From the NCBI GenBank assembly GCA_003144275.1, contig NJBF01000023.1:1-32000 (forward strand): a DNA stretch of 32,000 nt, given 5' to 3'. The DNA is from Candidatus Heimdallarchaeota archaeon B3_Heim. GTDB taxonomy: Archaea; Asgardarchaeota; Heimdallarchaeia; Hodarchaeales; Hodarchaeaceae. The notes under the pieces were generated by a model that was not told where the DNA came from, did no database searches, and was given only the letters and a program-made list of their open reading frames with translations. Positions 9,056-31,708 of this stretch are shown here, piece after piece. Position numbers and translations under genes: made by a program. The number at the start of each line of letters is the position of its first letter. The first letter of the stretch is position 1.

Positions 9056-9103
9056 GTGAAAGCATCCCGCAAAAAATAAGTGATCTGGATGTAGCTGCCG
9101 AAA

Positions 9104-10383: not shown

Positions 10384-10520
10384 TCGAACAGCCTTACGTC
10401 ATTATATGTCAAAAAAATCCCCCATGCAGAATATATAACTAATGAGTTTCATATTTAAGAATTTTATTTCTAATTCTGCATAGAACGTTGTTATTATTAA
10501 AGGTAGGATAAGTGCATTAA

Positions 10521-11903: not shown

Positions 11904-11925
11904 AATTCTTCCTCAAAGGAATTAC

Positions 11926-12693
11926 TCATTGGGATAGAAAATAGAGCACCTTTAAACGACCATGAAGCTCAGTAAACAAGCTTTTCCAATGTGACCCTAT
12001 TCCAATGAGCGCGAGGAGATAGGAAACTTCTCCAGAATTATCCTCCACTACTCGAAATAAAATATCAAGTAAACCTCCCTTACGTACGTAATCATTAATT
12101 ATGAGTACTCTTTTATTCCTAATCGCAGGCCTTTTTTGATTGAAATATACCGTAGAGACAAGTTCTTGATCTATAAGATAGGGGTATTGGGATATTTGGT
12201 CTGGTCTTGTAGATGGTGGACGATAAGAAACCGTATACCAAGGTATATTTAGTGTCTGGGAAAATCCAATTGCTAAAGGTACTGCTTCTGAATGAGTTAA
12301 AATGACGTCAAATCTATTATACAGGTTTTCTTTATAGCAAACGAAGTAAGCAAGGAAGTTAAGGGTTGATGGTGTACTTAATAGCTCTGTCAAATCCACT
12401 TGAATGGGTTGAGCCTGAATATCTATATAGATTCTAGGTATCAGTAAATCAGGTACTAAGTTAACTTCCTCCAACAGATAGGATTGAAATAAATCCATCT
12501 TTTTACGAGTTAACTTCGTTTCACCTCTTAAATACCGAGTAAACTGCGAATACGATATATTTAGATCTGAGTTATCAATGTAAAATTCTTTAAATGCCAG
12601 ATAAAACTCATTGGTAGATCGGTACTTCTTTAAACTGAGCCGCAGTCCATAAAGTACCTGATACTGATCCCAAAATCGCTTTTCATCTTTCAA
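11926..12693 (-). CDS. HTH plus type I phosphoribosyltransferase-fold protein (PurR-like regulator or PRTase)
   Basis: N-terminal helix ISYSQFTRYLRGE, EAVPLA motif, and PRPP loop VLIINDYVRKGG (ND in place of DD). Confidence 0.72.
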   Translation of the reverse strand: MKDEKRFWDQYQVLYGLRLSLKKYRSTNEFYLAFKEFYIDNSDLNISYSQFTRYLRGETKLTRKKMDLFQSYLLEEVNLVPDLLIPRIYIDIQAQPIQVDLTELLSTPSTLNFLAYFVCYKENLYNRFDVILTHSEAVPLAIGFSQTLNIPWYTVSYRPPSTRPDQISQYPYLIDQELVSTVYFNQKRPAIRNKRVLIINDYVRKGGLLDILFRVVEDNSGEVSYLLALIGIGSHWKSLFTELHGRLKVLYFLSQ

Positions 12694-12751
12694 GTTGATC
12701 CCATTGAAAACTCTTTTATTGTAATTTTTTGCGATAAAACAATTAGTTTGT

Positions 12752-12810
12752 TAGAATCATTGTAGTTTTAAAGCTTTTAAAGCTTTTTTCTTCATGATTC
12801 TACAATATTC
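12752..12810. promoter_or_regulatory. Divergent promoter core flanked by an inverted repeat (candidate operator)
   Basis: TAGAATCAT (12752-12760) and ATGATTCTA (12794-12802) bracket tandem TTTTAAAGC x2 (12766-12783). Confidence 0.5.
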
Positions 12811-12881
12811 GTCACGGAAACATCTTGGTTATGAAGGGAATACTTATCTAAACTAGTTTTGGTAGAAGTGTTCGAGTATCT

Positions 12882-13730
12882 ATGACCATTTTTCAATCAA
12901 CTGAAAAAGATGTGCAAATATCGAGACAAATAGCTCTCATAGCAGCCTTTACTGCAATAGTTTTTCTTTCAACTTCATTATTTTATATACCACTAATTTC
13001 TTCCACAGGTTTTTTTAATTTAGGGGAAGCTTTTATTTATTTAGCCGCTATAATTGGGGGACCCATAGTTGGAGCTATAGCTGGAGGATTAGGAGCAGCA
13101 ATGGCCGATATGGTACTTGGATACGGATATTTTGCCCCTGCGACTTTAGTTCTTAAAGGATTAGAAGGCTTTGCTGTAGGTTTTCTTTTTAGGAAAAGTC
13201 GTAATATTGATCGAAATATTCGCTATATCTTACTTGGTACGATTTCACTGTTTCTAATTGGTTTTTCTGCGTATGTAACCACTCCTGCATTGAATGGAGT
13301 CGAAGGATCATCAATTATTCAAATCACCTTTCGGTTGTTGGACCCTAGTTTAATACCTCAACATCTTCTTGATCCTACCATTGAAGATGTTTACCAGACA
13401 TTAGTAATTGACATTCCTGGAATTTTAATTCTAGCTACCGCCTTATTAATATGTCTAATAATGTGGTTCATCGAATTGAGGATGGGAGAGAAAGGACAGA
13501 TGATTCTTTCTTGCTTATTAGCTGGACCTATTATTGTTGTAGGTTACTTTTTATATGAGATTTTTATTTTGACTCTCTCCCCAGACCCTGCTGTGGCTTT
13601 TCAGTTAGCGGTGACAGAGGTTCCATTTAACATAGCACAAGTAGTATTTGGAACTTCGATTGCTATTCCTATTGTCTCATACCTACAAGAACTTGGTATT
13701 TTACAAGATGAAAGAGTACCTCCTTCATAG
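12882..13730 (+). CDS. ECF transporter S component with an internal insertion
   Basis: IALIAAFTAIVF, GFFNLGEAFIY..AIIGGP..GAIAGGLGAAMAD..LGY..FAP.TLVLKGLEG, and C-terminal EVPFNIAQ. Confidence 0.88.
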   Translation: MTIFQSTEKDVQISRQIALIAAFTAIVFLSTSLFYIPLISSTGFFNLGEAFIYLAAIIGGPIVGAIAGGLGAAMADMVLGYGYFAPATLVLKGLEGFAVGFLFRKSRNIDRNIRYILLGTISLFLIGFSAYVTTPALNGVEGSSIIQITFRLLDPSLIPQHLLDPTIEDVYQTLVIDIPGILILATALLICLIMWFIELRMGEKGQMILSCLLAGPIIVVGYFLYEIFILTLSPDPAVAFQLAVTEVPFNIAQVVFGTSIAIPIVSYLQELGILQDERVPPS

Positions 13731-13770
13731 AAAGAACGAGGACAATAAATGAATAATTTCCATAAGCGTA

Positions 13771-14643
13771 TTGACGGATATGGTCATTTCTTTCCTTTTA
13801 GAATGTATCATTGGAGAACTACTATTGTCTTTAGTTGATATTCGAAATTTATCAGTCTCTTATCAAGAAGAATCTAGCTGGGCTTTAAGAGATATTAATA
13901 TTACAGTAGAGAAAGGTGAACTCATCGTTATTGCTGGTTCTAGCGGATGTGGTAAAAGTACCTTAGCTCAGACAATAGTAGGACTAATTCCTACTTTTGT
14001 TAAGGCGAAAGTAGAAGGAACAATCAAGATCAACGAAACTCTGGTAAATGAACTATCAAGAAAACAACTTGTTAATATCATAGGTTATGTTCCCCAATAT
14101 CCATCCGATTTTACGACATCCCTGTTAGTGGAAGAGGAAGTAGCTTTTTTACTTGAGAATCTGGCCTATCCATCGGAAGAAATTCAAACTCGTATCCCCC
14201 AAGTTTTACACAAACTCAATATTCTTGATCTTCGAAACAAATTGATACCAGAATTAAGTTCAGGCGAGTTGCAGCGAGTAGCAATAGCAACTGTATTGGC
14301 ACACCAACCACAAATACTCATATTAGACGAACCAATGGCTCGTATCGATCCTAAGAGTGAAATCATGTTAGCTGATCTTTTGAAGGATTTATCTGAACAG
14401 GGGCATCTTATTCTTGCATTTGAACATAGATTAGATTATCTCTTGTCTCGAGCTGATCGTCTATTACTTCTAGATAATGGGAAATTGATCGGTGATGGTA
14501 AACCACAGACGCTTTTGGACAAAATAAGGGATATCGACTTACCTGAAGTATCAGAACTTAAGTGGCCGAACATAACACAGAGAAGTTTAACTTTAGAAGA
14601 AGCAAAATCTTCAATACTTGAGATTTTTAGAAAAGAACGATAA
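13771..14643 (+). CDS. ecfA1: ECF transporter ATPase
   Basis: Walker A GSSGCGKST, LSSGELQRVAIA, ILDEP, FEH. The true start is probably a little downstream. Confidence 0.9.
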   Translation: MTDMVISFLLECIIGELLLSLVDIRNLSVSYQEESSWALRDINITVEKGELIVIAGSSGCGKSTLAQTIVGLIPTFVKAKVEGTIKINETLVNELSRKQLVNIIGYVPQYPSDFTTSLLVEEEVAFLLENLAYPSEEIQTRIPQVLHKLNILDLRNKLIPELSSGELQRVAIATVLAHQPQILILDEPMARIDPKSEIMLADLLKDLSEQGHLILAFEHRLDYLLSRADRLLLLDNGKLIGDGKPQTLLDKIRDIDLPEVSELKWPNITQRSLTLEEAKSSILEIFRKER

Positions 14644-14685
14644 TTAACGAATAATGAATGGGATAATATATAGTAAGGGATATTA

Positions 14686-15474
14686 ATGGTTACCGTTAGC
14701 GTAGAAGATTTATGGTTTCGCTATTCTGGATCAAAAGGATATATTCTTAAATCTTTTACACTAAAAAAGGGAACTCCAAGCACTATTGGACTATTGGGCA
14801 TAAATGGTTGTGGGAAAACAACTTTGTTGAAATTATTAGGTGGGATTCTTTCACCTTCCAAAGGAAATATCAGAATAAATTCCGAACTGAGGGAAGGGAT
14901 TAGGGAGCCTAATCGAATTATTTACATTCCTGAAAATGCGAGACTATTTTTGGTTGGGCCAACTCTTCGTAAGGATCTGAATCGTGTTGTAACTGATCTA
15001 GAGCTCGTAAATCTACTAATTGAAAAATATAAATTGGGTTTTTTGGCTGACAAGAAGATTTACAACTTAAGTGAAGGCCAACGAAGACTTTCAGCTCTTT
15101 TTATTGCATTCCAGATTCCGAGTAAGTTAGTATTATTAGATGAACCAACAATAGGTCTTGATCGAAAAGGAAGACAACTTCTATTTCATCTACTTGAAGT
15201 AGCAAAAGAACAAGGAAAAATCGTTTTTGTATCAACTAATGATTCGCGAATCTTCCCAAAGCTAGATGAACTAGTAGTAATTCGCGATGGGCTGTTATTT
15301 CAAAGAGGATCACCAAAACATGTATTATTTATGCTCGAAGATAATTCAGAATTAATTCCAAATCAGATACCTCGGTTGATTCGCTCCCTTGAAGTACAAC
15401 TTAAGCAAAAATTACCACACTGCCTCACTCCAGAAGAAATGAATCACGTTATCGAGGAATGGAGGGTGAAATAA
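14686..15474 (+). CDS. ecfA2: ECF transporter ATPase (second subunit)
   Basis: GINGCGKTT, LSEGQRR, LLDEPTIGLD. The H-switch reads STND. Confidence 0.85.
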   Translation: MVTVSVEDLWFRYSGSKGYILKSFTLKKGTPSTIGLLGINGCGKTTLLKLLGGILSPSKGNIRINSELREGIREPNRIIYIPENARLFLVGPTLRKDLNRVVTDLELVNLLIEKYKLGFLADKKIYNLSEGQRRLSALFIAFQIPSKLVLLDEPTIGLDRKGRQLLFHLLEVAKEQGKIVFVSTNDSRIFPKLDELVVIRDGLLFQRGSPKHVLFMLEDNSELIPNQIPRLIRSLEVQLKQKLPHCLTPEEMNHVIEEWRVK

Positions 15475-16190
15475 TGTCATTTATGCTTAGAAGATTGTAT
15501 AAAGGATTTTCATATCATCCTGATGCGATACACATACATCCTCTAGTTAGTTTGACCATTCTAGGTTTACAATTTCTATTCCTATTAATTGGGAATGATA
15601 TTACAATTTTAATTCCTTTATTAGTTCTTATAGTTATAGAAAATTTGTTTTACGGGAATTTCCATGGGATGATAAGCCTTCTTAGAGCTATGATACCTTT
15701 ACTAGTTTTTCTTGGAATTTTAACCTTTTTATTCGGAGGCTTGATTCTGGCATATCTTCTGATTTTACGTCTGTTGGTTGGAGCGCTTTCCTGTTCGATT
15801 TTTTTTGCTGTAACTAATCCTTCTGATCTAGCACGATTTCTTGAAAAATGCAGAATTCCAACTAAATTAGCTCTAATACCGTCTCTTGCCTTAACAATGG
15901 TTCCTCGAGTAGCAAAAGACGCAGAGGAAACATTTGACACACTTGAATTACGAGGTGAAATTCAAGGATTCTTCCTTAGATGGTTGCCAAAAACTCTAGC
16001 AATTTTTGTCGCCTCAATTTTATACCGATCTGAATTTCTAGCACAATCTCTCTATTTTCGTGGGTTTGGTATTCAAAAAAGAACCTATTATAGAACGGTT
16101 CCCTTCCAACGAATCGATCTCATCAGGAGTACTCTCTGGCTTTTATTTATCCTTCTCCTACCTATATTAAAAACTTTTAAAATTTATTAA
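15459..16190 (+). CDS. ecfT: ECF transporter transmembrane T component
   Basis: TMs, TNPSDL, and two XRG coupling motifs (ELRG, YFRGF). It follows two ATPases and an S unit. Confidence 0.87.
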   Translation: MEGEIMSFMLRRLYKGFSYHPDAIHIHPLVSLTILGLQFLFLLIGNDITILIPLLVLIVIENLFYGNFHGMISLLRAMIPLLVFLGILTFLFGGLILAYLLILRLLVGALSCSIFFAVTNPSDLARFLEKCRIPTKLALIPSLALTMVPRVAKDAEETFDTLELRGEIQGFFLRWLPKTLAIFVASILYRSEFLAQSLYFRGFGIQKRTYYRTVPFQRIDLIRSTLWLLFILLLPILKTFKIY

Positions 16191-16845
16191 CCTGAAGCAC
16201 AACCACTCTTCCTTGATAGATACGAAGATGAGCATATCTACCCATGTTAATAGCCATTACGGGAAAAAGTTTATCAGCAAAGGATTTGCCTAATAATAAA
16301 GACTGAATGATTGTAAACGATCCACCATGTCCAATTAATGCGATTTTATGTGTTTTTCCATCTCTTTTTGAATCTACTAGTTGCGAAAATCCAGAAGATA
16401 CACGTTCCCAAAATAATTGAATACTCTCTCCATTAGGAAAGGTAAAATCCTTGTGTACATTTAACAATCGTGCGACAAGAGGCTCATGCTTTCCTACCTT
16501 ATTCATAGGGAAGAATTTAGGATAAGATGGATCTTCCTTTATTTCTGATTTATATTTTCCAGCCCAATCCCCAAGATCAATTTCTGCTAACCATTCCTGT
16601 TCGCTAAGAGGTGGTTTTATATCAAAAGCATCATAGATATAGGCCGCGGTTTGTTTAGTCCGAATAAAAGGGCTGACAATAAATTCAGAAAATGATTGCG
16701 TATGGAGCTCTTTAGCTGTGAATTTTGCTTGCTTGATACCTATTTCACTCAATGGAGAAGAAGGTGATGTCCAATGTTCTGGAGGATTTTCTGGTTGTGC
16801 ATGTCGAATCAAGAATAGATCTATTTCAAGGTTTTTAAGATTCAA
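16177..16845 (-). CDS. Histidine phosphatase superfamily protein (PGM-like)
   Basis: LIRHAQ, LSEIGIKQA, SPFIRTKQTA, LAEIDLGDWAG, FPNGES, IGHGG. Confidence 0.9.
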   Translation of the reverse strand: MNLKNLEIDLFLIRHAQPENPPEHWTSPSSPLSEIGIKQAKFTAKELHTQSFSEFIVSPFIRTKQTAAYIYDAFDIKPPLSEQEWLAEIDLGDWAGKYKSEIKEDPSYPKFFPMNKVGKHEPLVARLLNVHKDFTFPNGESIQLFWERVSSGFSQLVDSKRDGKTHKIALIGHGGSFTIIQSLLLGKSFADKLFPVMAINMGRYAHLRIYQGRVVVLQVNKF

Positions 16846-16893
16846 TTAGATTCTTTCCGAATAACTGAGGATAGGAAGAGGAAATACCCTTCC

Positions 16894-18000
16894 TTATAGA
16901 TTTTTCGCTTGTCCGTAGCTATTGAAAGCTTTCAAGAACATCAATGCACTTGTATAAGCCGCTGATGCTAAAGCATGCTCAGTGCTCGCATCAACATCAT
17001 ATAGTTCATCAAAATGTTCTACTATGGCAAGCTTACTATATTTCAAAAAAGTTTCATTTACAGGAACACCTGTTTTATGATAATTCTCACTGGTCCATTT
17101 GAAAATGGTTTCAAACAGCTCTGGTTCAAAGATTTTAAGAACATCCCATGCAACAGTCATCCAATTTGTTCCCACATTTCCTTTGCCAATTACATCTTTA
17201 GGAAATCTCTTAGCAATGATATCGAGTGGAGTACCAGTGATTCCATGTTGAGCGATTTTCACACCAAAAGGTTTGATGGCTTGGCCGATATCTGATGTCA
17301 GTTGAATGTCAATCCCTTCCTGTCGTATTGGATTACCACGTTCATCATATTGAAATCCATGAACAGAACCATTTGCGATTGCAAGAAAATGAGGGTGGAC
17401 ATCTTGTTCTTTCAATGACTCAATGAAGGTTGTTGCCTCACTTACTGTAGTCATTACTAGCCCTGTTTTTGGGTCTTTTTTTCCTATCTCTCCAACCTCT
17501 ACCTCTAATCCAAATTTTTTATGCCCCAGTTTGTCCTCAATGAAATGAGTCACTTCAGTGGTTGCTTTGATGTTCCCTGCTAACCGTTCCTTATCATTGG
17601 TTCCTGATTCATCATATAAGAAGCTTGCATCAATGGCAAAAGAGGTATACCCCGCTTCAATTTGAGCTGTGATTAATTCTTTCACTCCAGGAATATCCTC
17701 AGGTTTTCCTACCTTGATATGATCCCCGTGGATAACATAATTAGAGTATTGGACTTCTGTGGCTACACCTCTCACAAATTTTCCATATTTTGCTGGAGTA
17801 AGTCCTGTGTATCCTCCTTTTAGATCTGATTCCGATTTAGCTAATTCAAAAGCTATTGGTGAATCTGTATCCTTTGCAGCTTGTAAAATTCCTTTTACCA
17901 CTCCCTTACCTATTCGTGTATTACACGCCATAATAATACTCTTTGTAGGATGAAGCTTTTCGTAAAAAGGCTTTCCCCACATTGGTTTATAATCAGACAT
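16894..18000 (-). CDS. fba: Class II (metal-dependent) fructose-bisphosphate aldolase
   Basis: IHGDH, SFAIDAS, EVEVGEIG, LAIANGSVHG, AQHGITG, KGNVGT. Confidence 0.88.
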   Translation of the reverse strand: MSDYKPMWGKPFYEKLHPTKSIIMACNTRIGKGVVKGILQAAKDTDSPIAFELAKSESDLKGGYTGLTPAKYGKFVRGVATEVQYSNYVIHGDHIKVGKPEDIPGVKELITAQIEAGYTSFAIDASFLYDESGTNDKERLAGNIKATTEVTHFIEDKLGHKKFGLEVEVGEIGKKDPKTGLVMTTVSEATTFIESLKEQDVHPHFLAIANGSVHGFQYDERGNPIRQEGIDIQLTSDIGQAIKPFGVKIAQHGITGTPLDIIAKRFPKDVIGKGNVGTNWMTVAWDVLKIFEPELFETIFKWTSENYHKTGVPVNETFLKYSKLAIVEHFDELYDVDASTEHALASAAYTSALMFLKAFNSYGQAKNL

Positions 18001-18282
18001 TATTTTAACTCCGCAGAATAATTGTATTTAGATAATTAGATCTATTTACTGAAACATTTAAAACTTGGCTAGTTAATCAAACTTATAAAGGTACTAGTCT
18101 ATTATACTCTGGGGATAGGTATTATTTTACTCTTATTTCTGGAATATTAAGAGTGGTTAGAGTGCGTGCATTTTACCTACCCCCTCAATCTCTTAGATAC
18201 GGTCTTTTTAAGATTTTTTAAAAACTAGGTTACTTGTTTTTATATGTAAAGTTTAGGGCTTTGCTGGGGGAAAAGGGAAAAT

Positions 18283-20966: not shown

Positions 20967-21124
20967 AGCCTACTATATTTCTAATTGAATTCAGAACAAA
21001 AGGAGAATTTTTCGACGGATTTTCATATCTTTAGTAATTTTATAGTCGGGGTATCTTTAAGTTTACATATATAAGTTTGAAAATTGTAAAGTTTTTAATG
21101 GGTTGATTCAAATCCTTTTGTATA

Positions 21125-21739
21125 ATGGCAACAAGTGATTATCTTGATCCTACCTTCTTCATTGACAGTGACTCACCAATAATTCAACAAAAAGCGATTG
21201 ATCTACAATCCCAATCAGCAGATGCAGTGGATCTGAGTATTTCTATATTCAATTTTGTACGAGATACGATTAAATACAAAATAAATATGTCTTATTATGC
21301 TGGTCCTGATGATTTTAAAGCTAGTGCTACATTAAAACGAAAAGAGGGATTTTGTATCCCCAAATCGATTCTATTAGCCGCATTATATCGTAGCTGTAAG
21401 ATTCCTTCAAGATTGCATTTTGCTGATATTATCAACCATCGTAGTCCTGATTATTTAGTAAAACTCATGGGTACAAATGTATTCTATTTTCATGGGTATG
21501 CAGAGGTTTTTCTAAACGATCAATGGTACAAGCTTACTCCTTCTTTTGAAACCGAACTGTGTCTGAAACATGATTTTCCCATTTGTACCTTCAATGGATC
21601 AAATGACGCCACGTTTCCTTCAAAAGATCTACAAGATAGACCCTTCATTGAGTATCTGAAGGATAGGGGTGTTTTTGCAGATCTTCCTTTTTCCGAAATG
21701 GTGACTACATTCCAAGGGTATTACAGTGGCCATTTTTGA
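21125..21739 (+). CDS. Transglutaminase-like (papain-fold) protein
   Basis: IFNFVRDTIKY, GFCIPKSILLAALYRSCKIPSRL (catalytic Cys), FHGYAEVFLNDQW (His). Confidence 0.87.
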   Translation: MATSDYLDPTFFIDSDSPIIQQKAIDLQSQSADAVDLSISIFNFVRDTIKYKINMSYYAGPDDFKASATLKRKEGFCIPKSILLAALYRSCKIPSRLHFADIINHRSPDYLVKLMGTNVFYFHGYAEVFLNDQWYKLTPSFETELCLKHDFPICTFNGSNDATFPSKDLQDRPFIEYLKDRGVFADLPFSEMVTTFQGYYSGHF

Positions 21740-21984
21740 AGACTGGTTCAATGCTTTACGCTTTTATTTCCACAGTAGGAAGTTCACAATTGATCAAAAT
21801 CTAAAGTCTTTATGTTAACAGAAAAGGGAAAACTCATCAAGAATGCACTAAATTAACCCATAAGTCACTTCTATTTGGATTATACATCCTCGATTTTTTT
21901 TAAATACTGATTCTTTCCTTAGTCCAGCAATATTTATTTTCTGCTACAGATCTTAGTTAGTTGGTATTTCTGGAGAATAAAACA

Positions 21985-22641
21985 ATGGTATTTAGACTAC
22001 TTTGAATAAATGGTTCCCCCAAAAAACCCGCTGCGAAAACAAATTCACAATTTTTACTCAATACTACCTTACAAAGTGCTAAAGAACAAGGAATTGAAAC
22101 GACATTAATAAATTTGCCTGATTACAAGATCAACCTGTGCAACGGGTGTGAAGTGTGTACCACAAAACCTTGCCCTCTTGATAAGGATGATGATTATCCA
22201 AAGATCGAAGCTCTGATTCAAGAGCACGATGGTTTGATAATTGCCTCTCCTTCATACTGGACTGGTCCTCCTGGCATTTTAAAGAATTTTTTTGACCGTT
22301 CACGTGACAATAAGATGCCTAAACAATTATGGGAAGGAAAATTATTTTCAGCTATTGCTGTGTCTGGTTTACGGGTGGGAGGACAGGAAACAGTTGTCTC
22401 CCATTTGATTACTTTTGGTTTAGCACATGGAATGTTAATTGTTGGAGGTACAGGTCACCCATGGTTTACTGCTCCCTTTCCTATGGGTTCCATGATGTAT
22501 GATGAAGTCATTGATGGAGAAGTAAAAGTTAAATTTCGACATGTGAAGAATGATATCATTTCTATTCGTGACTCTGAGGCTTTAGGCAAACGGATAGCTG
22601 AATTAGGAATAAAGTTATTCACTAGAACGAGTAAAGATTAA
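21985..22641 (+). pseudogene. Iron-sulfur flavoprotein / NADPH-dependent FMN reductase with an in-frame TGA at codon 7
   Basis: ATG 21985 (GGAG upstream) reads MVFRLL*INGSPKK..., in frame with ORF 22114-22641. Isf-type CNGCEVCTTKPC and IASPSYW, LKNFFDR motifs. TGA at 22003-22005. Confidence 0.85.
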
Positions 22642-22652
22642 TAACGTGACAT

Positions 22653-22922
22653 TTGGTGGAATTATTGGAAGATCCCTTCGCTCGTAAAAAATTGGAAAAA
22701 ATTGATTCGAAAACAGGATGGGGTAAAAGAGTTTACTATGTCTTATATGGATCCCAGGATGAAGATTTCTGTGATAAATGTAAGAAAACATTTAGCGATG
22801 ACGAATACAACATTTATAGTGATATTTCGGAGTGTTGTTATTGTCTACCCTGCTTTTTCAAAGGTTTTAAATTTACAACATTAAGACATTTGCGTTTTTT
22901 TAGATCTCTCTCACCAAAGTAA
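22653..22922 (+). CDS. Small Cys-rich (putative Zn-binding) protein
   Basis: FCDKC...ECCYCLPC. Starts 11 nt after the flavoprotein stop. Confidence 0.55.
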   Translation: MVELLEDPFARKKLEKIDSKTGWGKRVYYVLYGSQDEDFCDKCKKTFSDDEYNIYSDISECCYCLPCFFKGFKFTTLRHLRFFRSLSPK

Positions 22923-23186
22923 TGAGACGAATGATCTAGTCGGTATTTATTATTATTTTTAAAAGTGTAAATAATTTCAATAATTAAATCTCTACTCTCG
23001 ATATCAAATTGAACGATTTTGATCCTGTAATTCTAAATAATCCATCCACTTGCGTCGATTACTGTTCCAATGCTCCTGGAGATTTAAACGAACATAGTTA
23101 TTACTTAATAGAATAGTATAAATCTTATCACTCATAGTATCACTTTACAGTTTTTCATTCATCATATTCCTTTTAATCTCCCAAAA

Positions 23187-24005
23187 ATGCTTCTCAACCT
23201 AGATCCTTTCTTTCCTTTTAATATTCGAAAAATTTTTGGTGTACTGACTTTGAAAATAAAACATGCTCTTGTCCGAGAACCTAGTGACACCTTTTCTAGT
23301 TGTATCTCTTCTCACCCACTGCATAGTTCTGTTAGTAGAATGCAAGCTAAAGTGCAGCACCAGAATTATTGCGAAGTTCTATCTGATTTTGGATTAGAAG
23401 TTATGAAACTCCCACCTGACAATTCATTTCCTGATGGTTGTTTTGTTGAAGACACAGCAATCATCCATAAGAACAGAGCATTAATTTCACGAATGGGAGC
23501 CATCAGTAGAAGAGGAGAAGAGCAAGCAGTCCTTGAATACCTATCGGAATCTTTGAAAGTTAAGGTTACTGAAGCCCCAGGTACTATTGAAGGGGGAGAT
23601 GTCCTTCACCTACCTAGTTTTCTAATTTCTGGAGTCTCACAGAGAACAAATAAAGTAGGGGTAAGGCAACTCTCAGATTGGTTACAAATTGAAGTCAAAA
23701 CAGTAATCGATAACTCTATTATTCATCTTAAAAGTCATGTGACCTATCTTGATTCAGGTACTGTGATTGTTAATGAGAATGTCTCCAATCATCCTGTTCT
23801 TGAATCTCTTACTAAAATTGTAACCGTGTCAAGGGAGAATTATGCTGCTAATACATTAACAATTAATAATACCGTTTTACTCCCAACTGGATTTCCTGAC
23901 ACATATCAACAATTAACAAACAATGGGTTTGAAGTCATCACTCTCAATGTGTCTGAGTTTCAGAAGTGTGAAGGCGCCTTAACGTGCCTATCACTTCTAT
24001 TCTAA
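23187..24005 (+). CDS. Dimethylarginine dimethylaminohydrolase / amidinotransferase family protein
   Basis: FPDGCFVEDTA, SRRGEE, IEGGDV, HLKS, GALTCLS (Asp/His/Cys catalytic positions). The true start is probably TTG 23250. Confidence 0.9.
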   Translation: MLLNLDPFFPFNIRKIFGVLTLKIKHALVREPSDTFSSCISSHPLHSSVSRMQAKVQHQNYCEVLSDFGLEVMKLPPDNSFPDGCFVEDTAIIHKNRALISRMGAISRRGEEQAVLEYLSESLKVKVTEAPGTIEGGDVLHLPSFLISGVSQRTNKVGVRQLSDWLQIEVKTVIDNSIIHLKSHVTYLDSGTVIVNENVSNHPVLESLTKIVTVSRENYAANTLTINNTVLLPTGFPDTYQQLTNNGFEVITLNVSEFQKCEGALTCLSLLF

Positions 24006-24049
24006 TTTAACTAGAAGAGTATGCTTTATTCTATGCATCTTGATTTCAG

Positions 24050-25525
24050 TTAATCAAACCGTTTCCAGTCAAACGTCTTTCGAATGTTCATACTCCAGCG
24101 AACGATCACATCAGGACCAATATAATAACTAATTTTAACCCCAGGTACCTCAGTATAGAGAGAAGCGAAACGATACAATAGCGTATGAGTCCAAGATAAG
24201 GGGATGTTCACTATCCCAACCATTAACCCCTTTTTATCATTATAAAACACATTGGAAAAAGGGAAAAACTTGAAATGTTGAAGTATTCTTTGGACATCAT
24301 CACTCGGGAGGTCATAAATAAGGAAATAGACCCATGAACCAAGTCCGATGTGAGAAAATGTGGGAAACCGATTGATGATTTTATTTCGAAGTAAATTTGT
24401 CCAATCAACATTGATGCTTTTTCTGGATCGTTTTAGCTGCGTTTCGAGAGCCTTATAATCCATGGTGGAATATTGATAAATATAACCCAGCAGTTCAGCT
24501 TCCTGACGCGATACCTGATAATAATCATAATCAGGATCTAGATTGTACTCGAATCCAATATTTCCTACAATCAGCTCACGTTTCCAACTTCCACCTGGTC
24601 GCAGCAATGGTGGTCTCAATTTCCATCTTTCTTCAGGCTTAGCCGTTAAACCAGCAAGGTTCCAATTTCGGTATTGTTTTGTTGGGATAGTAAAAGCTCC
24701 TGGTGAAATCCCAAACGTAGATTCCAAGCTTGAAATTATTTCAGAATTCGCATACGGATACTGGACGACTGCGACATGTTTTTGCAATGGGGGAGCTGGG
24801 AAGTTATAAAAAACATATTCTAGTACCTCTTCAGGAATCTCCTGAAGAGTAGTTTCATGAAGAAAAACAACGGTTTGATAACCAATTTTTGCCATATCTA
24901 AAGAATAAAACATGCTAAGTAGTGAACATTCAAGTAGAAAATCCAACCGACTTGTAACCGTTCTGACATCTTGTCGTGTTCCATAAGCCAATTCTTTTAA
25001 CTTCGGGAATTTATCTAAAGATTTCGAAAAATTTGGATTAGCAAGCTTTTGAATTATCTTAACATCCGTTTTCCGTAAAGAGAAATTATAGTCTCTCGTA
25101 AGTTGAAAAATGACTTTTCTAAAATTTTCTAAAGAAGGTTTATTTTGTAATTGTTCATAGATCTCCCCTTCACGGGTATTTGCCTCGTATATTATGAGTT
25201 TTCTTGGTATTAATACATTTATTCCATCCATATGAAATAGTACAGAATGAAAACGTGTGGCATACGATTCTACAAACTGAATATAGTCCAAATGCTTCCA
25301 CTTCTGGTAGAAGGGCAAAGTAAACTCCAGAAATATTTTTTCAGCTAAATCTCCCCAATTTCGCCATAATTGATATTTATGTTGTTCAGAATGCATCAAG
25401 ACGCGAATGTTACTCCAAATATTGAGGAAATCACCAATGAATGCTTTCTCTTGTTGTAAATTAATCGATTCGGCTGAATCCTTAAGAACCATTCCAAAAA
25501 CCATCAATTTTTTCTTGAAAACCAA
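24050..25525 (-). CDS. Large transcriptional regulator with two tandem Lrp/AsnC-like HTH+RAM modules
   Basis: Module 1: DVKIIQKL...LKELAYGTRQDVRTVTSRLDFL...LDMAKIGY. Module 2: EAELLGYI...YKALETQLKRSRKSI..DWTNLL...FSHIGLG. The N-terminal ~130 aa is helical and unrecognised. Confidence 0.7.
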   Translation of the reverse strand: MVFKKKLMVFGMVLKDSAESINLQQEKAFIGDFLNIWSNIRVLMHSEQHKYQLWRNWGDLAEKIFLEFTLPFYQKWKHLDYIQFVESYATRFHSVLFHMDGINVLIPRKLIIYEANTREGEIYEQLQNKPSLENFRKVIFQLTRDYNFSLRKTDVKIIQKLANPNFSKSLDKFPKLKELAYGTRQDVRTVTSRLDFLLECSLLSMFYSLDMAKIGYQTVVFLHETTLQEIPEEVLEYVFYNFPAPPLQKHVAVVQYPYANSEIISSLESTFGISPGAFTIPTKQYRNWNLAGLTAKPEERWKLRPPLLRPGGSWKRELIVGNIGFEYNLDPDYDYYQVSRQEAELLGYIYQYSTMDYKALETQLKRSRKSINVDWTNLLRNKIINRFPTFSHIGLGSWVYFLIYDLPSDDVQRILQHFKFFPFSNVFYNDKKGLMVGIVNIPLSWTHTLLYRFASLYTEVPGVKISYYIGPDVIVRWSMNIRKTFDWKRFD

Positions 25526-25647
25526 TTTAGAGAAAACGAATTTCAGTTACTTTTATGCATTTTTCCACCTTCATTAATCTTATCTAATTTTTCACATGGA
25601 ATCCTAAATGCTCTCAGAAATAAAATAAACAAACGGATGAATGAAAA

Positions 25648-25818
25648 ATGATACGAAATATTCGAAATCGTCTCCAAATACTGAAACCAACACGAATTGA
25701 CTTCTACAAATTCTTACCTTTAGTTTTTATTGTGGTATTATTAATGATAACGATAAGTTTGGGCATTGCAGATCCCACTACACCCCCTCCAAGACCACCT
25801 AATGGTGATGGTACTTAG
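25648..25818 (+). CDS. Secreted peptide precursor, 56 aa (below the ORF-track cutoff)
   Basis: MIRNIRNRLQILKPTRIDFYKFLPLVFIVVLLMITISLGIA|DPTTPPPRPPNGDGT*: basic n-region, long hydrophobic h-region, G-I-A signal peptidase I site, short Pro-rich mature part. Confidence 0.72.
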   Translation: MIRNIRNRLQILKPTRIDFYKFLPLVFIVVLLMITISLGIADPTTPPPRPPNGDGT

Positions 25819-25841
25819 GAATAATTATACAATAAACAGGT

Positions 25842-27208
25842 TTGAAAATGATGTCGGGGACAGTGCTATCCTTTAATCCTGCTATTAACCGCGGATTACT
25901 CTCAGCTCTCTTACCAATGACTTTCATACAGGACTTCCACATTCAGCATTCAGAAATAATCTGCTATTTCACAAAGAATTATGAAGAAATCCTTCCTCAA
26001 GTGCAAACATTTTTGGATGCAATCGGAGAAATTGCAGAGACGCAGTTCTATTTTGAAATGCAAACTAGCAGGATTGGGGCATTAAAAATATATGATACAG
26101 AACCACTCACGTTGAATGAACATTTACTGTTTGAAAACAACATTGATTGCGAATTAAAAAAGAATATAATCCAATGACACTTATTAGCACTAAAAGCTGT
26201 GGTGAACTCATGTTTCAAAAAGAAAACAGTTTGTACAACCAGAACGAACTGTACTACTCAAAATTCTTGTGGAAACATCAGCAACCCAAAGACGCAAGTC
26301 TTCCGAGGGACTACCAAAAACCAACCAAGAAAACCTGGGGATGACCAATTACTCACCAAGAATTAACCACTGAAAATGCCTTTACAAATCCGTTTCAATC
26401 CTATATCATTACGGATGATGATGTAATCCTTTATTATACGCAATCTTTTGCGGAAATAAGTGGTCTCAATCCATCCCAGTCATCCTCCCGTCTCTCACAG
26501 CTAAATACCCAAGATGTAAACTTTAACCTTCTTGAAGATTCACATTTAATATATAACGTTTATTCCTGTCATAAAAAGTCACCTATTCCCCTACCCTATC
26601 AACAAATGTGGATTGAAGACCTTATTCATGAATTACGCACTGCTAGCCTCATAATGGGACTTGGAACTAGATTGATACAAGAAACATCTAGTTCTTCGCT
26701 TCCTTATCTATTTAAAACCCTTAGAACAGCCTCACATCGACAGAAAATGAGCACTTTAATTGCCTCAGATTTTATTCAACTTTTAAGCTCTCCTCCCTCA
26801 TTATCTCCGGCTACTTTGTCAGGAGTAATTTCCAAAAGCTGGAGCTCCTCTCCAGATCCTTCTAGGGTCAGATTTCATGTTCAAGCAAATAATGGCTGTA
26901 ATGAGCCGTATTTCAACGCAAATCCCGTTATTTATGGCAGTGAACATTTTCTAGCTAATTTTTGTATTACTACTCTCACCTGGTTTGAAAACGAACCCGT
27001 TACGATTGAATTGGAACAAATAAACCGCGTTTCGATCAGGCTTAGCTTTTGTATTCCCTATGATCACTATTTATCTTCGTTACAAAGCTATCGGTTAATT
27101 AATCATTATTTTCAATACATAGCTGCTTATTTTAATCTCCGTTGTTGGTTAACTCAATCAACCTTCAATATTGTTTTCCCCTTATTAATTGACCAAAGTA
27201 ATAGTTAA
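25842..27208 (+). pseudogene. Disrupted cytoplasmic PAS-HisKA-degenerate HATPase protein
   Basis: The frame of ORF 26606-27208 is open from 26345 and encodes PAS-like AFTNPFQSYIITDDDVILYYTQSFAEISGLN, then EDLIHELRTASLIMG (H-box-like). The HATPase-length C-terminus has no recognisable N/G boxes. Upstream pieces lie in other frames, with TGA at 26175-26177 and 26342-26344. Confidence 0.55.
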
Positions 27209-27705
27209 TTGGGGGGAATACTTGCATCAGGATCCTTATACCCGTAATAGGCTCCCATATCTACGGAAACATTATTTATTCTCAAATAAGTGAATATCTG
27301 TCCCGCATGAAACCATTCATGACCAATTTCGTCGAATATTTCGTGGTACAATGAAGATTTTTCTTCCTGATAAAAAAACTTCACTTTTTTCTCTCGTGCG
27401 TCCTCCAAATGTTCCTCAAGATATGTAATTAATTTTTCAAGTCCCTCATCATAAAGCTTCACCAAACCTTGTGCATTTAAAGGAAAATTTTGCTTTTCAA
27501 GTTCACTAAATTCTTCTCCTGATTTTAATTCACCTTTAAATAATTCAAGGAGCATTAATGGACTAGAGGCCAAATGATTCGCTAATTCAGCTGTACTCTT
27601 CATTCCAGAACCAGGTTTCCAGTCCCAGATATCAAGGGGAATCATTTTCAGTAAATATACTATGCCTTTTCGGCGTTTTTGCATTGTGGCAATTAGTTCC
27701 TCCAT
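27205..27705 (-). CDS. DinB/YfiT-like family protein
   Basis: WDWKP..GMKSTAELANHL and HEWFHAGQIFTYLR metal-binding His pattern. Confidence 0.87.
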   Translation of the reverse strand: MEELIATMQKRRKGIVYLLKMIPLDIWDWKPGSGMKSTAELANHLASSPLMLLELFKGELKSGEEFSELEKQNFPLNAQGLVKLYDEGLEKLITYLEEHLEDAREKKVKFFYQEEKSSLYHEIFDEIGHEWFHAGQIFTYLRINNVSVDMGAYYGYKDPDASIPPN

Positions 27706-27783
27706 ATTGTAACATCCGAAATCAATTCATAACTGAAGTACTTTTAAAGGTGACTCCCCTAGCAGCTTTGAGATTGATCTGTT

Positions 27784-29337
27784 ATGGAGTTAATGGACAG
27801 TTTACTGCAAGGATTGACTATTGACCAGCGGGATTATCAGTTGCAGGCGGTGCAAGAAATTCTCACCCACCACAAAGAATCGCGTTCAATTCTGTTAAAC
27901 TATCCATATGGGACTGGAAAAACAATCATCGCTCTTCTTGTTCTATTAAAACTCCGGATGGATGAACCAAGTAAACAATTCATCTTCACTTCTGCTCGGG
28001 AGGCTGCTGGTTTACGATGTCGTCAAGCTGTGGAGATGGGAAAAGAATTTGGGTTTGTAGACCGACTAGGTTATCTCTTTAATCCTCAAATTGGAGGAAA
28101 AGGATTGAATCTATCACAAAAGTTAAAAATGTACCAAGCTTCCCAAGTCATCTTTTCTCCTATCCAAACTCTTATGAATGATCGTTTTCAGATTAAATCT
28201 CGTCTCAAAGTTGATATTTTTGCCAATGTTTCTCTTTGCATTGTTGATGAAGCCACAGATCTACTTGCCCGATCCATGACTGGCTTTCGTTTATCGAAAT
28301 ACTTCCAAGAATTATTCCAAGTTCGAAAACAAACGAACAATTTTCCCATACTTGCCATGTCAGGGACAAGAGATCAATACAAAGCTCAATTTATTATGCA
28401 AGTACTTGGTGAAGACGCTCACCAAATGTCCCGTTTAGACTTATCACCCTATGAAACCATCACTCAAATCAAACCGATAGTACGGGAAGATTATATCAAG
28501 AATGATCAAACGATTTCTAATTTATTGACCAAACCTGTCGGGACCATTCAAGAAATCCTTGATCCCAATCTAAGTCGTTTAGAAATTGTCAAACTGTCAT
28601 ATGGAGGAGTCCTTGATCGATTACGAGGTGATCAAAGTACCTATCCAATCAAACTGGGCAAATATCGAGTTACAACTAATGATGATCGTATCCAACTAAT
28701 TAATGCTTTTGCCCTACTTTTTAAACTAACACACGCCCGTTTACTTCTCCTTGAAAGCACTCCTGGGGAATATCTCAAATATACAAAGAAAGAGGAAAAT
28801 AAGGAAGTTTTTTCTTCTCTGATAGAAGTAAGTTCACAAATCATCTCCTATCGAGTTGATTTGCCTCGTTATGATAAGCCTGAGGAAGTTACAACCCGTG
28901 GATTAATCCATCCGAAAATAGAAATGGCTATAAATATAATTCATGAACACATCATTCGAGGGGCCAAAGTACTACTATTCACACGCTATTTAGCTTTGGG
29001 TGATCAATTACGAATGATACTGGAAACCCTACAGTATCCTGGGGTCAAATATCTTTCTGGTAAAACAAAGGAAGAATCACGTCATATTATCCTTAATCAA
29101 TTTCGTAAAGAGGATGTTAATGTTCTGATTTTCACTCCTGTAGGTGGTCGGGGATTAAATTTAGAGGAAGCGGACGTGGTTATCCATTTAGATATTACTA
29201 GTAATCTAGATGATATGACACAACGTAGGGAACGGGCAAGAGGGTGTATTGAGTACGTTCTTGTCTTACAGGGGACAAGTGAAGAAGCGAAAGTAAAGGA
29301 GTATGCTAAGCTAACTAACGCTTCAACGGTTGAGTGA
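27784..29337 (+). CDS. SF2 helicase, Hef/FANCM-like, without nuclease domain
   Basis: RDYQ, PYGTGKT, IFSPIQTLMND, IVDEAT, AMSGT, HPK, LLFTRY, GGRGLNL, QRRERARG. Confidence 0.83.
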   Translation: MELMDSLLQGLTIDQRDYQLQAVQEILTHHKESRSILLNYPYGTGKTIIALLVLLKLRMDEPSKQFIFTSAREAAGLRCRQAVEMGKEFGFVDRLGYLFNPQIGGKGLNLSQKLKMYQASQVIFSPIQTLMNDRFQIKSRLKVDIFANVSLCIVDEATDLLARSMTGFRLSKYFQELFQVRKQTNNFPILAMSGTRDQYKAQFIMQVLGEDAHQMSRLDLSPYETITQIKPIVREDYIKNDQTISNLLTKPVGTIQEILDPNLSRLEIVKLSYGGVLDRLRGDQSTYPIKLGKYRVTTNDDRIQLINAFALLFKLTHARLLLLESTPGEYLKYTKKEENKEVFSSLIEVSSQIISYRVDLPRYDKPEEVTTRGLIHPKIEMAINIIHEHIIRGAKVLLFTRYLALGDQLRMILETLQYPGVKYLSGKTKEESRHIILNQFRKEDVNVLIFTPVGGRGLNLEEADVVIHLDITSNLDDMTQRRERARGCIEYVLVLQGTSEEAKVKEYAKLTNASTVE

Positions 29338-29398
29338 ATCCAACGTACACTACGTCGTTTTAGATCTGACCCCATTTACCTGAACTTTCACCTTCGAT

Positions 29399-30736
29399 TT
29401 AAAGCTCTGATCCACAGAAAGCACAGAACTTAGCATTTGGTAACAATATATTACCACAAGAATAACATCTCTCTCGGTTGTCAGAGATAACTGTAGGAAT
29501 GAAATCTGGCTGGTGAAGAAGGATTCTAGAATTATCTTCTTCAACCGAATCTGAAACAAAGAGAGGGTGTGTAATTGGTGTCACTTTGAATACAATCAAA
29601 GTTAGGACTACTATCATTGCTACGAAGAAAGATACTTGTATTAAATAAAACATTAATTCTAAAGCCTCAGATTCGGGAATTAACACATCTCCAACAAGAT
29701 CGAGAAAAATCGGAACCGCTCCAGAAACTACAATAAACCCTATTAGAAAAAAACTAAAACTGAACAAAGCCCCTGATTTATCTTTAGTCTCTGTAATGAT
29801 CTGTATCCAGATTGGTTTATACTTGTCTTTATTTTTTTGAAGTAGCTGTATAAGAAAGTATATTGATGCTGCTGCTCCAACTCCAAGAGCAATCAATGTC
29901 CAAGAAAGGATTAAAACTGTTATAATGGGAGATCCTACCTCAGGAAGATCAATATCAGAAAATTGACTCAAGGCGGCGAAACCGTTTGTCCCTGCATGAA
30001 ATAGGATAGGCCATAGGATATTTCGTGTCTTTAAATATAGAAAACCTAGAAGGAGACCACCCAGCAAAGTGCTAATAAAGTGCTCTATTGCGAAGCCTAA
30101 TGAGCCATTATATAGATCAGTGGGTGTGTGTTGTAATGAAAACAATAGGCTTGAAAATATTAATGCCCACGCTTGTCCGATCCCTCTTCGCTCAAATAAT
30201 GGAATTAACGTCCGTCGAAAGACTAATTCTTCCCAAATCGGGGCTCCTATAGCGAAAACACTAAAAAATAAAAATAAAAAAACCGGATCATTAGCTAACA
30301 CTGCTGTAGGACTAATTGTATCATAAGGCGATTCAGTTGTGAAGCCCTGCTCCTTTAAAAATGTATCTATCGGTAATAGAATGATGAAAATCAAAAAAAT
30401 ATTCATTGCATGCAAGAGGTAAGTAGTAAGAATATGCTGGCCTTTAGGAGTTGTTTTTTCTTCAGGCTCAATTCTACCATATCTATATAAAATTGTAAAT
30501 CCTATAATAGCCCCAATTTGGGCGCCAAAGTTCAGGATTAGGTGAAATATAGGTTCGTTTGTTTCTGTTACATGCAATATGTCATTAAAAATTCCGAAAA
30601 AGATTCCAAACCTGAAAACGTTTCCTATAAGATCAAAACATGATACAAGAAGTAAAATTACAGCAAAAACATAAGCTATATCTTTTGTATGAATTCTCGT
30701 TTTATCTTGCGATGTATTATCCAATGAATGTTCCAT
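29399..30736 (-). CDS. CPBP (type II CAAX / Abi) intramembrane metalloprotease with C-terminal zinc ribbon
   Basis: WEELVFRR (EExxxR), FSLQH (FxxxH), HAGTN (HxxxN), terminal CYSC...FCAFC. SD GAGGT upstream. Confidence 0.9.
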   Translation of the reverse strand: MEHSLDNTSQDKTRIHTKDIAYVFAVILLLVSCFDLIGNVFRFGIFFGIFNDILHVTETNEPIFHLILNFGAQIGAIIGFTILYRYGRIEPEEKTTPKGQHILTTYLLHAMNIFLIFIILLPIDTFLKEQGFTTESPYDTISPTAVLANDPVFLFLFFSVFAIGAPIWEELVFRRTLIPLFERRGIGQAWALIFSSLLFSLQHTPTDLYNGSLGFAIEHFISTLLGGLLLGFLYLKTRNILWPILFHAGTNGFAALSQFSDIDLPEVGSPIITVLILSWTLIALGVGAAASIYFLIQLLQKNKDKYKPIWIQIITETKDKSGALFSFSFFLIGFIVVSGAVPIFLDLVGDVLIPESEALELMFYLIQVSFFVAMIVVLTLIVFKVTPITHPLFVSDSVEEDNSRILLHQPDFIPTVISDNRERCYSCGNILLPNAKFCAFCGSEL

Positions 30737-30754: not shown

Positions 30755-31708
30755 TTAAGATGGAAGAAAAAAGATTCCGAAAAAGAATGCACCTAACGCT
30801 ACCCACAATGACCAACGAGTGTATTTTCGTGCTTTTTTCCCGCCCTGAGATTTTTCTACAAAGATCGTATAACTCGTTAAGACTAGAATTGATGCAAAAA
30901 CAGCATCAAAAAACCAGAATACCAGATTCTTATAAATAAATGTTCCTGCAACAAGTGACGAAACTATTGCAATAGCAAAACAGATTGTTGCAACAATGCT
31001 TGCCATTTTTGTTCCGTACTTCACTGCTAATGAATTAAGATGCTGCTTTTTGTCTCCCTGAACGTCTTGAATGTCCTTTGCCACTTCTCGTCCCACACTC
31101 ATAAAGAGTGTCGTGTTTAGAATGATTAGACATGCTGTTATGGTCATTCCTTTTTGGGGATTTAGCAAAAAAAATCCCATGAACAATGGGGCAACATAGC
31201 CTATAGATACCCAGACATTACCGATAAACCCTAATTGCTTGACACCAAAATTATACCCTACACCAATTATGACGAATATTATCGTGAAGATTAGAAGGGC
31301 AATGGTTACCTTATAAATCAATACAAGACCGCTTATAATGAGAACAGCTGTTAAATATATTAAAAAAGTTAAAATCTTTACAAAATTTCTCGAAAGGTCT
31401 CCGCGGGCTAATGGACGGTCAAGACGTTGATTTGCTATATCGGTCTCGACATCAAAGAAGTCATTAATCGCCTGGTTTCCCCAAGTGAGAAGCATAGTAG
31501 CAAATAGACCAAATACTAGTCCTGGCCACTCCAACACACCGTTATTAAATAAGAATGTAATGAAGTCGGGGTTACTCCCCTCAAGAACAAAAACAATGAA
31601 GCCAGCAGAGAGAACGGCAAAACTACTTAAAATCCCAAGGGTAAAACGTAAAAGGTCTAATATTGCCCTAAATTGTGTCATACTCACGGTTGTCTCTCCA
31701 CTGATCAA
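30755..31708 (-). CDS. UbiA-family prenyltransferase, probable digeranylgeranylglyceryl phosphate (DGGGP) synthase
   Basis: NQAINDFFDVETDIAN...RPLARG and GREVAKDIQDVQGD motifs with multiple TMs. The likely start is ATG 31681. Confidence 0.88.
   Translation of the reverse strand: MISGETTVSMTQFRAILDLLRFTLGILSSFAVLSAGFIVFVLEGSNPDFITFLFNNGVLEWPGLVFGLFATMLLTWGNQAINDFFDVETDIANQRLDRPLARGDLSRNFVKILTFLIYLTAVLIISGLVLIYKVTIALLIFTIIFVIIGVGYNFGVKQLGFIGNVWVSIGYVAPLFMGFFLLNPQKGMTITACLIILNTTLFMSVGREVAKDIQDVQGDKKQHLNSLAVKYGTKMASIVATICFAIAIVSSLVAGTFIYKNLVFWFFDAVFASILVLTSYTIFVEKSQGGKKARKYTRWSLWVALGAFFFGIFFLPS

Follow-up and report, generated by a model that had tools for sequence, protein, structure and literature searches.

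A small gene with a signal-peptide-like layout, paired with a divergent double-Lrp regulator in Hodarchaeales, as a candidate for peptide signalling in archaea

A conserved small gene and its divergent regulator

Positions 24050–27208 of the window (the whole 32,000-nt stretch of contig NJBF01000023.1 of Candidatus Heimdallarchaeota archaeon B3_Heim, 35% GC) hold a small gene, which we call pep, that faces away from a regulator gene, reg, across a shared control region and is followed on its own strand by two further genes, d1 and d3. An earlier note on this DNA had proposed that the locus is a peptide-signalling cassette, composed of a secreted-peptide gene, a double-Lrp regulator and a PAS-kinase-like gene. 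We compared it with genomes related to its source: 201 of the phylum, 24 of the order and 9 of the genus, among them the window's own genome (G000, in which the window belongs to contig C47) and its sister genome (G013). The cassette comprises the following features.

24050..25492, minus strand: reg, a regulator of 480 amino acids (aa) from its likely start, ATG 25492, as judged by orthologue alignment; the longest open reading frame (ORF), from TTG 25525, has 491 aa
25493..25647: intergenic control region between reg and pep, 155 bp
25648..25818, plus strand: pep, 56 aa, with n-region M1–K21 (6 K/R), h-region F22–I34, c-region T35–A41 and tail D42–T56 (nt 25771–25815); stop codon TAG
25848..26177, plus strand: d1, 109 aa (109–111 aa in the family); alternative start TTG 25842
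26178..26347: spacer between d1 and d3, 170 nt, where the other orthologue clade has a longin-like gene of about 145 aa
26348..27208, plus strand: d3, 286 aa, soluble and histidine-kinase-like, with a putatively PAS-like N-terminus, a DHp helix and a degenerate HATPase_c-like C-terminal domain

The 56-aa frame is present on the plus strand as the earlier note had described it, and the tail past G-I-A41 is the 15-mer DPTTPPPRPPNGDGT, which contains 6 Pro. Because a 57-codon open frame is not rare in DNA of 35% GC, we used conservation as the test of gene status. Translated searches (tblastn) of the loci of reg relatives matched pep beside the reg orthologues, in the same place and orientation, with E values from 1e-18 to 1e-5, and after larger flanks had been fetched for the first 18 reg loci, a small ORF of the same plan was found in 17 of them. 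Hidden Markov models (HMMs) of both genes, that of pep built from 17 members, were then run on 25 further loci and gave 22 divergent pairs, 1 tandem pair and 3 genes alone. Across the order, the pep HMM found 46 copies in 18 of the 24 genomes, and by their coordinates 38 of these 46 sit 200–450 nt from, and divergent to, a reg-family match. The earlier note had held that its proposal would fall if no small ORF were conserved next to homologous regulators; on the contrary, 42 of the 45 reg genes of this genus identified by the reg HMM and a family tree of 44 regulators adjoin a pep, nearly all of them divergently.

The ratio of non-synonymous to synonymous substitution rates (dN/dS) of pep is 0.25–0.36 between close orthologues, indicating purifying selection, and a strain variant from a cold-seep metagenome has 10 listed differences within pep, 7 of them at third codon positions. 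A Shine–Dalgarno-like GGATGA (25635–25640) stands 7 nt 5′ of the pep ATG, and in the second orthologue clade an evident GGAGG precedes a TTG start by 8–9 nt. Given its conservation beside reg, its dN/dS and the Shine–Dalgarno-like element before its start, we regard pep, on this comparative evidence, as a real gene. Fifteen of its relatives stand in public records as hypothetical proteins, none of the 15 assigned to a family; no fused or longer form turned up among proteins of 99–2000 aa, which is weak evidence. In two metatranscriptome runs, short contigs covered parts of reg (24756–25052 and 25114–25371) and of the d1–d3 spacer region (26187–26422) and none covered pep, at a depth of about 2–3 and with DNA carry-over possible, so that these contigs speak neither for nor against expression. 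Rfam gave no match in 23900–27400, and PADLOC gave no match that would point to a defence system or a toxin. Several paralogous pairs occur per genome, with up to 7 pep and 9–11 reg matches. The second reg–pep pair of the window's genome (locus L078, contig C19, 55314–55427 on the minus strand and 55634–57022 on the plus strand) belongs to a different subfamily, and its tail ends in ...MNGPLGSGID.

The regulator consists of an N-domain of about 135 aa (a helical hairpin and a small alpha-beta part) and two modules, each a winged helix-turn-helix (wHTH) followed by a RAM domain (wHTH at about residues 139–200 and RAM at 201–280, then wHTH at about 326–378 and RAM at 379–460). Its AlphaFold model (pLDDT 89, pTM 0.88) retrieved with Foldseek the fused double-Lrp-fold NirDL (4ch7, E 5e-8) as top match and then single Lrp/AsnC regulators, and the AFDB clusters that resemble it are named Lrp/AsnC and include tandem forms of about 480 aa. 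In profile comparison with the PDB, the reg family matched PH0140, PH0061 and LrpA (E 1.5e-5 to 0.04) and, weakly and in the first module, PH1519. The wHTH-then-RAM order that defines Lrp/AsnC proteins thus occurs twice in reg by fold and profile, whereas neither the Pfam HTH_AsnC-type nor the AsnC_trans_reg family reaches its curated score: Pfam returned nothing significant, with sub-threshold wHTH matches (HVO_A0114, MarR, HTH_24 and, in one member, HTH_AsnC-type at E 0.026) and AsnC_trans_reg unmatched. The two Lrp-type modules and the N-domain of unrecognised type that the earlier note had read from the sequence are therefore borne out by profile and fold despite the Pfam result, and a search for look-alikes of the N-domain found none. 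By its predicted fold, reg belongs to the Lrp/AsnC superfamily as a distant relative in which two modules are fused and a further domain is added. Conservation is highest in the first wHTH and lowest in the N-domain and first RAM domain, which we regard as candidate sensing parts. Co-folding of reg, d1 and pep scored 0.00, with partner pLDDT below 40, values that speak neither for nor against contact.

Every one of the 9 genomes sampled from the genus has full-length reg proteins, and none of the others among the 201 genomes of the phylum does, single-module matches being all that they gave; among 1.84 billion representative sequences, 274 belong to the family at E ≤ 0.001. Distant full-length relatives from metagenomes also have small ORFs of a head-plus-helix type (44–94 aa), upstream or in the divergent operon.

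The earlier note had put pep 122 bp from its regulator, which holds for the longest ORF from TTG 25525; the likely start at ATG 25492 widens the gap to 155 bp. Intergenic alignment shows a block at about 25551–25587 that is kept among close orthologues and contains an A/T-rich ATGCAT element and a TTCATTAAnnTTATCTA element, which we infer from this alignment to be promoter or operator elements. Inverted repeats in the region are weak. A direct repeat, GAAAAC(C/G)AATTT, in 2 copies 15 nt apart at 25517–25543, lies between the two candidate reg starts and upstream of both, and could be an operator or due to chance.

Layout of the small protein

Members of the pep family share a plan of a basic head of 16–25 aa, a hydrophobic core of about 13 aa, a 7-aa stretch of small residues and a Pro/Gly-rich tail of 9–15 aa. 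The head contains 3–8 Lys/Arg with a net charge of +4 to +8 and the consensus R-x-R-L...K-P; the core is uncharged, and its third residue is Pro in 15 of 17 members. The following 7 residues are rich in S, T, G and A, and the first of them (position −7, counted back from the presumed cleavage site) is never hydrophobic but T, G, S, Q, K or R, being K, R or Q in three members. This c-region is TISLGIA in the window and ends in a small-bulky-small pattern, G-I-A here and A-S-A, G-S-A or G-A-G in the paralogue subfamilies. Position −3 is G in 16 and A in 1 of 17 members, and position −1 is A, T, S or G in all 17. The tails, 46% Pro, 14% Gly and 12% Thr, are nearly chargeless, and their motifs are specific to the individual reg clades.

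The n/h/c layout is kept across all subfamilies though the residues differ: a tripartite arrangement with a short hydrophobic core of 13 aa, K/R before it and a polar residue at −7 after it, is found in 17 of 17 members as well as in the paralogue subfamilies. In the same genome, four substrate-binding proteins with genuine signal peptides show h-regions of 11–16 and c-regions of 7–10 residues of the same make-up as those of pep; their n-regions, of 6–14 residues, are shorter and less basic than the pep head. The signal-peptide-like layout that the earlier note had claimed for the single ORF thus agrees with a plan common to the family and with real signal peptides of the same organism. Read from these alignments, the layout favours a cleavable Sec signal, and we judge that pep is probably, if by no means certainly, cleaved by signal peptidase. 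Among other export routes, a twin-arginine signal was ruled out, the RR motif being absent beside the core, as was a class III (pilin-type) signal, there being no G/A before the hydrophobic stretch.

The earlier note had also suggested a test for variable mature parts. Tails differ between reg clades, but when orthologues are compared the tail is better conserved than the rest of the protein (51% against 28–34% for the other parts). In the paralogue loci L058 and L065 the tails end in Cys (...APPPTC and ...AAPPTC), a hint that members of this subfamily may be modified at their C-termini.

Divergence between close relatives and the genes downstream

The window and G013 are 95% identical in DNA over 11.4 kb (6700–18068) and 94–99% identical at 26360–29400 and 30800–31400. 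Between 24050 and 26347 identity falls to 63% in reg, 56% in the control region, 46% in pep, 61% in d1 and 53% in the d1–d3 spacer, with protein identities of 52, 44 and 56% for reg, pep and d1, and the right-hand edge of this low-identity block is sharp (26300–26360). The more distant genomes G003 and G018, whose flanks are 72–80% identical to the window in DNA, have reg, pep and d1 closer to those of the window (74, 57 and 71% for G003; 72, 53 and 64% for G018), and in the reg tree G013 is the outgroup to the window, G003 and G018 (100/100 support). Because the cassette diverges beyond its flanks while the cassettes of G003 and G018 are closer, we conclude that it has been exchanged or has diverged independently of its surroundings; these identities indicate that reg, pep and d1 moved together and that the kinase-like d3 did not. 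The pattern comes from one species pair. The second reg–pep pair (L078) is nearly identical between G000 and G013, with the same tail.

To the left of the cassette, 21000–24000 is only 67–95% identical to G013, and about 21800–22000 and 22600–23000 are without a counterpart there; by this comparison the variable zone may extend leftwards past the cassette. A second island of divergence from G013 is a gene for an intramembrane protease of the Rce1-like/CPBP kind that bears a zinc ribbon at its C-terminus (29399–30736, minus strand; 58% identity in protein, 55–69% in DNA); 18 nt separate it from the UbiA-family prenyltransferase gene upstream of it (30755–31708, minus strand). Its NCBIfam matches to CPBP proteins are weak and sub-threshold, and among them is MroQ, the name of a family associated with the maturation of AgrD. 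In the other orthologue clade its synteny with the cassette is not kept. A DDE-type transposase gene (90–1268, plus strand; Pfam DDE_Tnp_1, E 1.6e-12) stands at the window start.

The earlier note had placed a PAS-HisKA-like gene 23 nt past pep. The gene at that place is instead the separate, conserved d1 (25842/25848–26177), and the kinase-like d3 starts 529 nt downstream. It has an H-box and a putatively PAS-like N-terminus but has lost the ATP-binding boxes, and it does not directly adjoin pep. We consider d1 and d3 separate genes because they lie in different frames at most loci, often with a longin-like gene between them, and are each conserved independently; a single broken PAS-HisKA-HATPase gene spanning 25842–27208 was ruled out on the same grounds.

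At 16 of the 17 loci examined first, and also in several of the paralogous cassettes, the gene after pep is d1, whose protein has a small alpha-beta-beta-alpha-beta-beta core (residues ~15–85, pLDDT 86–96). Structure searches gave it no convincing relative (best Z 6.8, to unrelated folds), and there was no support for reading it as an isolated RAM domain or as related to some portion of reg (Z 4.3 to a NirDL RAM domain). In other species of the genus (loci L041, L042, L043, L045, L047 and L049) a longin-like gene of about 145 aa, with sub-threshold matches to Pfam Longin and Fuz_longin_1, lies between d1 and d3; the window's clade lacks this gene, and no remnant of it is detectable in the window spacer (26178–26347).

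The H-box of d3, H94-E-L-R-T (His codon 26627–26629), is invariant in 11 orthologues and aligns to that of a true kinase of a paralogous cassette, and d3 matched the DHp domains of ERS1 and CpxA (E 0.012–0.027). The DHp helix with its phospho-acceptor His that marks a histidine kinase is thus present, but among the ATP-binding N, G1 (DxGxG) and G2 (GxGxG) boxes the glycine boxes are absent from the alignment and the candidate N-box Asn is not invariant. Pfam found neither HATPase_c nor HisKA at E < 0.1 and no PAS; protein-language features, the only indication of PAS beside the unmatched Pfam search, placed d3 at 0.95 to HisKA/PAS clusters. On this evidence d3 is a soluble kinase-like protein (a pseudo-kinase) that has kept its acceptor His. 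No ATG, GTG or TTG precedes 26606 in its frame; ATG 26341, at the place of the start region in the orthologues, is one base out of frame, ATT 26348 aligns with the Met of the orthologues, and the same is seen in G013. Since d3 is under purifying selection (dN/dS 0.18 between the window and G013), it is probably started at the ATT or reached by a frameshift. Read-through or selenocysteine at the in-frame TGA 26342 was ruled out, as the upstream frame (26147–26341) is poorly conserved and lies in another frame in the orthologue L038, and the Met of the orthologues corresponds to the window ATT.

Elsewhere in the family, the paralogous cassette L052 (genome G001, contig C6) continues from pep and a d1-like gene to a hybrid kinase of 692 aa (REC-PAS-PAS-HisKA-HATPase_c) and then a response regulator. 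A receiver on its own is found in L068, a small GTPase in L056, and multi-wHTH proteins in L067 and L071. The genes that recur with the pep–reg pair are regulatory.

Interpretation and comparison with known systems

Guided by these observations, we tentatively read the locus, at somewhat short of even odds, as a fast-evolving and self-contained regulatory cassette limited to one Hodarchaeales genus, in which an exported, cleaved pep is sensed by its cognate reg. In this scheme, reg and a pep-led operon would be read in opposite directions from the shared 155-bp control region, the operon encoding pep as an export-tagged mini-propeptide, then d1, then variable two-component-type proteins, here d3. 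Sec would insert or export the pre-peptide, signal peptidase I would cut after G-I-A41 or one turn earlier, after G39, and the 15-aa Pro-rich tail, protease-resistant, would be set free as an extracellular cue specific to its own reg, reaching it by uptake or through a separate receptor; reg would then shift transcription from both divergent promoters. An SBP_bac_5 (OppA-like) gene on the same contig (C47, 40205–41689), 8 kb past the window end and about 14 kb from pep, is weak evidence in favour. A bolder version, in which reg–pep–d1 cassettes would be allelic pherotype modules, each lineage and each paralogous channel secreting its own Pro/Gly-rich peptide to be read by the matching double-Lrp receptor, seems to us improbable on present evidence.

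The earlier note's signalling interpretation gains from the conserved pairing, the clade-specific tails, the fast divergence and the signal-like layout, and loses from cytosolic partners, a long conserved head and a tail that is not the most variable part. Several further points weigh against export and sensing. Pro stands at +1 of the G-x-A site in 2 of 17 members, and those would need the alternative site after Gly; Pro at +1 blocks signal peptidase I in studied systems. A pre-protein of 50 aa needs post-translational targeting, which is poorly documented in archaea. The cassette contains no exporter, protease or importer, and contigs of metagenome-assembled genomes (MAGs) can be chimeric, so that the sharp mosaic edge could partly reflect assembly.

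The strongest competitor, which we take seriously but consider less probable than the signalling reading, is that pep stays uncleaved as a single-span, N-in/C-out, tail-anchor-like micro-protein of about 50 aa, whose basic head would bind d1, reg or the kinase-like proteins and tether or modulate them at the membrane while the Pro-rich stub caps the helix outside. It would then act much as MgrB and SafA do on bacterial sensor kinases, or by sequestering a transcription factor at the membrane. This reading would account for an n-region that, at 16–25 aa, is unusually long, strongly basic and conserved, more so than plain export requires, and for the K/R-to-D/P spacing, fixed at 20 residues with no indels and compatible with a membrane span, along with the retention of Pro at core position 3 (15 of 17). 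Because just 15 residues follow the hydrophobic stretch, it would leave the ribosome only once termination has occurred, as in tail-anchored proteins; reg, d1 and d3 are without membrane segments, all cassette partners being cytosolic; and distant reg relatives are paired with longer (75–94 aa) head-plus-helix proteins. The residue at −7, however, is never hydrophobic, which leaves about 13 hydrophobic residues, few for a membrane span but usual for an h-region; small residues at −3 and −1 persist even between subfamilies with no other tail or c-region residues in common; and the clade-specific tails of 9–15 residues would be left unexplained.

An exported peptide without a signalling role (acting at the surface, in adhesion or in competition, or bacteriocin-like), with reg as its dedicated transcription factor and the divergence as the trace of an arms race, is a distinctly poor fit. 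It shares the export evidence of the signalling reading, namely the layout and the comparison with genuine signal peptides, and the cassette and the nearby CPBP-type protease gene are both hypervariable, the CPBP family being associated in bacteria with immunity to bacteriocins and with the maturation of peptides. Yet near-chargeless Pro/Gly/Thr tails of 9–15 residues are unlike known antimicrobial peptides, the recurring neighbours (kinase-like proteins, response regulators, a hybrid kinase and small GTPases) are regulatory, the CPBP gene lacks synteny in the other clade, and no defence family was matched. Slighter still is the chance that pep acts in cis or reports on export, aIF5A-dependent Pro stalling before its stop (23–55 nt ahead of d1) or the freed signal-peptide head setting the expression or activity of d1 and the genes behind it, in the manner of SecM/MifM/VemP-type monitoring peptides or of signal-peptide fragments that go on to a further function: many members have runs of 3–7 Pro directly 5′ of the stop, pep–d1 spacers are short and the head is conserved, but several paralogue subfamilies have few tail Pro, and purifying selection covers the whole peptide. 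A force-released arrest peptide of the MifM/SecM type was rejected on geometry: with a mere 15 residues between it and the stop, the hydrophobic segment would still be inside the ribosome tunnel there, so release by pulling force cannot work.

Returning to the signalling reading, we consider the pep–reg pair, as judged from its genomic record, a credible candidate for peptide signalling in archaea. The known archaeal signals are small molecules, and we know of no description of peptide-based cell–cell signalling in Archaea, nor did the literature searched contain one; no paper was found on peptide–regulator pairs of this kind. In Hodarchaeales, the group placed nearest to eukaryotes, the locus offers a concrete and testable candidate system of 9–15-residue peptides, one soluble regulator and one 155-bp target region. 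Were the pherotype version true, the closest known archaeal relatives of eukaryotes would have peptide-based density sensing or recognition of kin or partners, built from parts unrelated to the bacterial ones. Even if pep stays in the membrane, it would represent an undescribed micro-protein family that co-evolves with a lineage-specific double-Lrp regulator and is wired to two-component-type, longin-like and small-GTPase genes. Cassette-wide divergence within genomes about 95% identical marks the cassette as a specificity or recognition locus, of a kind rarely identified in uncultured archaea.

Several known systems resemble parts of the cassette. Like MgrB, which acts on PhoQ, and SafA, pep has about 50 aa, a predicted N-in orientation, one hydrophobic segment and a short outside tail and is encoded with signalling genes; in contrast, the kinase-like partner here is soluble, the c-region of pep resembles a peptidase site, and there is no homology. 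The comQXP locus of Bacillus and the agrBDC locus of Staphylococcus are polymorphic pherotype cassettes that likewise show a block of three genes, that of the peptide among them, differing strongly between close relatives next to a conserved kinase-type gene and conserved flanks, with a sharp boundary, but their proteins are unrelated to those described here, the cassette has no modifying enzyme or membrane receptor kinase, and its polymorphism is drawn from one MAG species pair. With the Lrp/AsnC proteins and the NirDL/AhbAB siroheme decarboxylases, reg shares a wHTH and a RAM alpha-beta sandwich per module, the two modules being fused as in NirDL; it differs from them in its identity of about 9–15%, its lack of a Pfam match at gathering score and its added N-domain of about 135 aa. 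Autoregulation is typical of Lrp proteins, as is the binding of small ligands between RAM domains (PMC2995911).

The RRNPP pairs of Bacillota and their phages (Rap–Phr, NprR–NprX, PlcR–PapR, Rgg–SHP and AimR–AimP) set a tiny gene for an export-tagged propeptide, a putative one in the case of pep, directly beside the gene of a cytosolic regulator, and of the known systems they are the ones whose working the pep–reg pair would most resemble. No TPR repeats were found in reg in its model, in Pfam or in fold searches, and since reg is not a TPR protein the pair is not a member of RRNPP: the receptor is a TPR array there and a double Lrp/AsnC protein with an N-domain here, the host is an archaeon, and pep is followed by a co-evolving d1 and two-component-type genes. 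The likeness lies in the active part being a short C-terminal peptide (putatively so for pep), in the presence of several paralogous pairs per genome and in the joint divergence of peptide and regulator, and Rgg–SHP, many pairs of which are divergent as reg and pep are, comes closest in layout.

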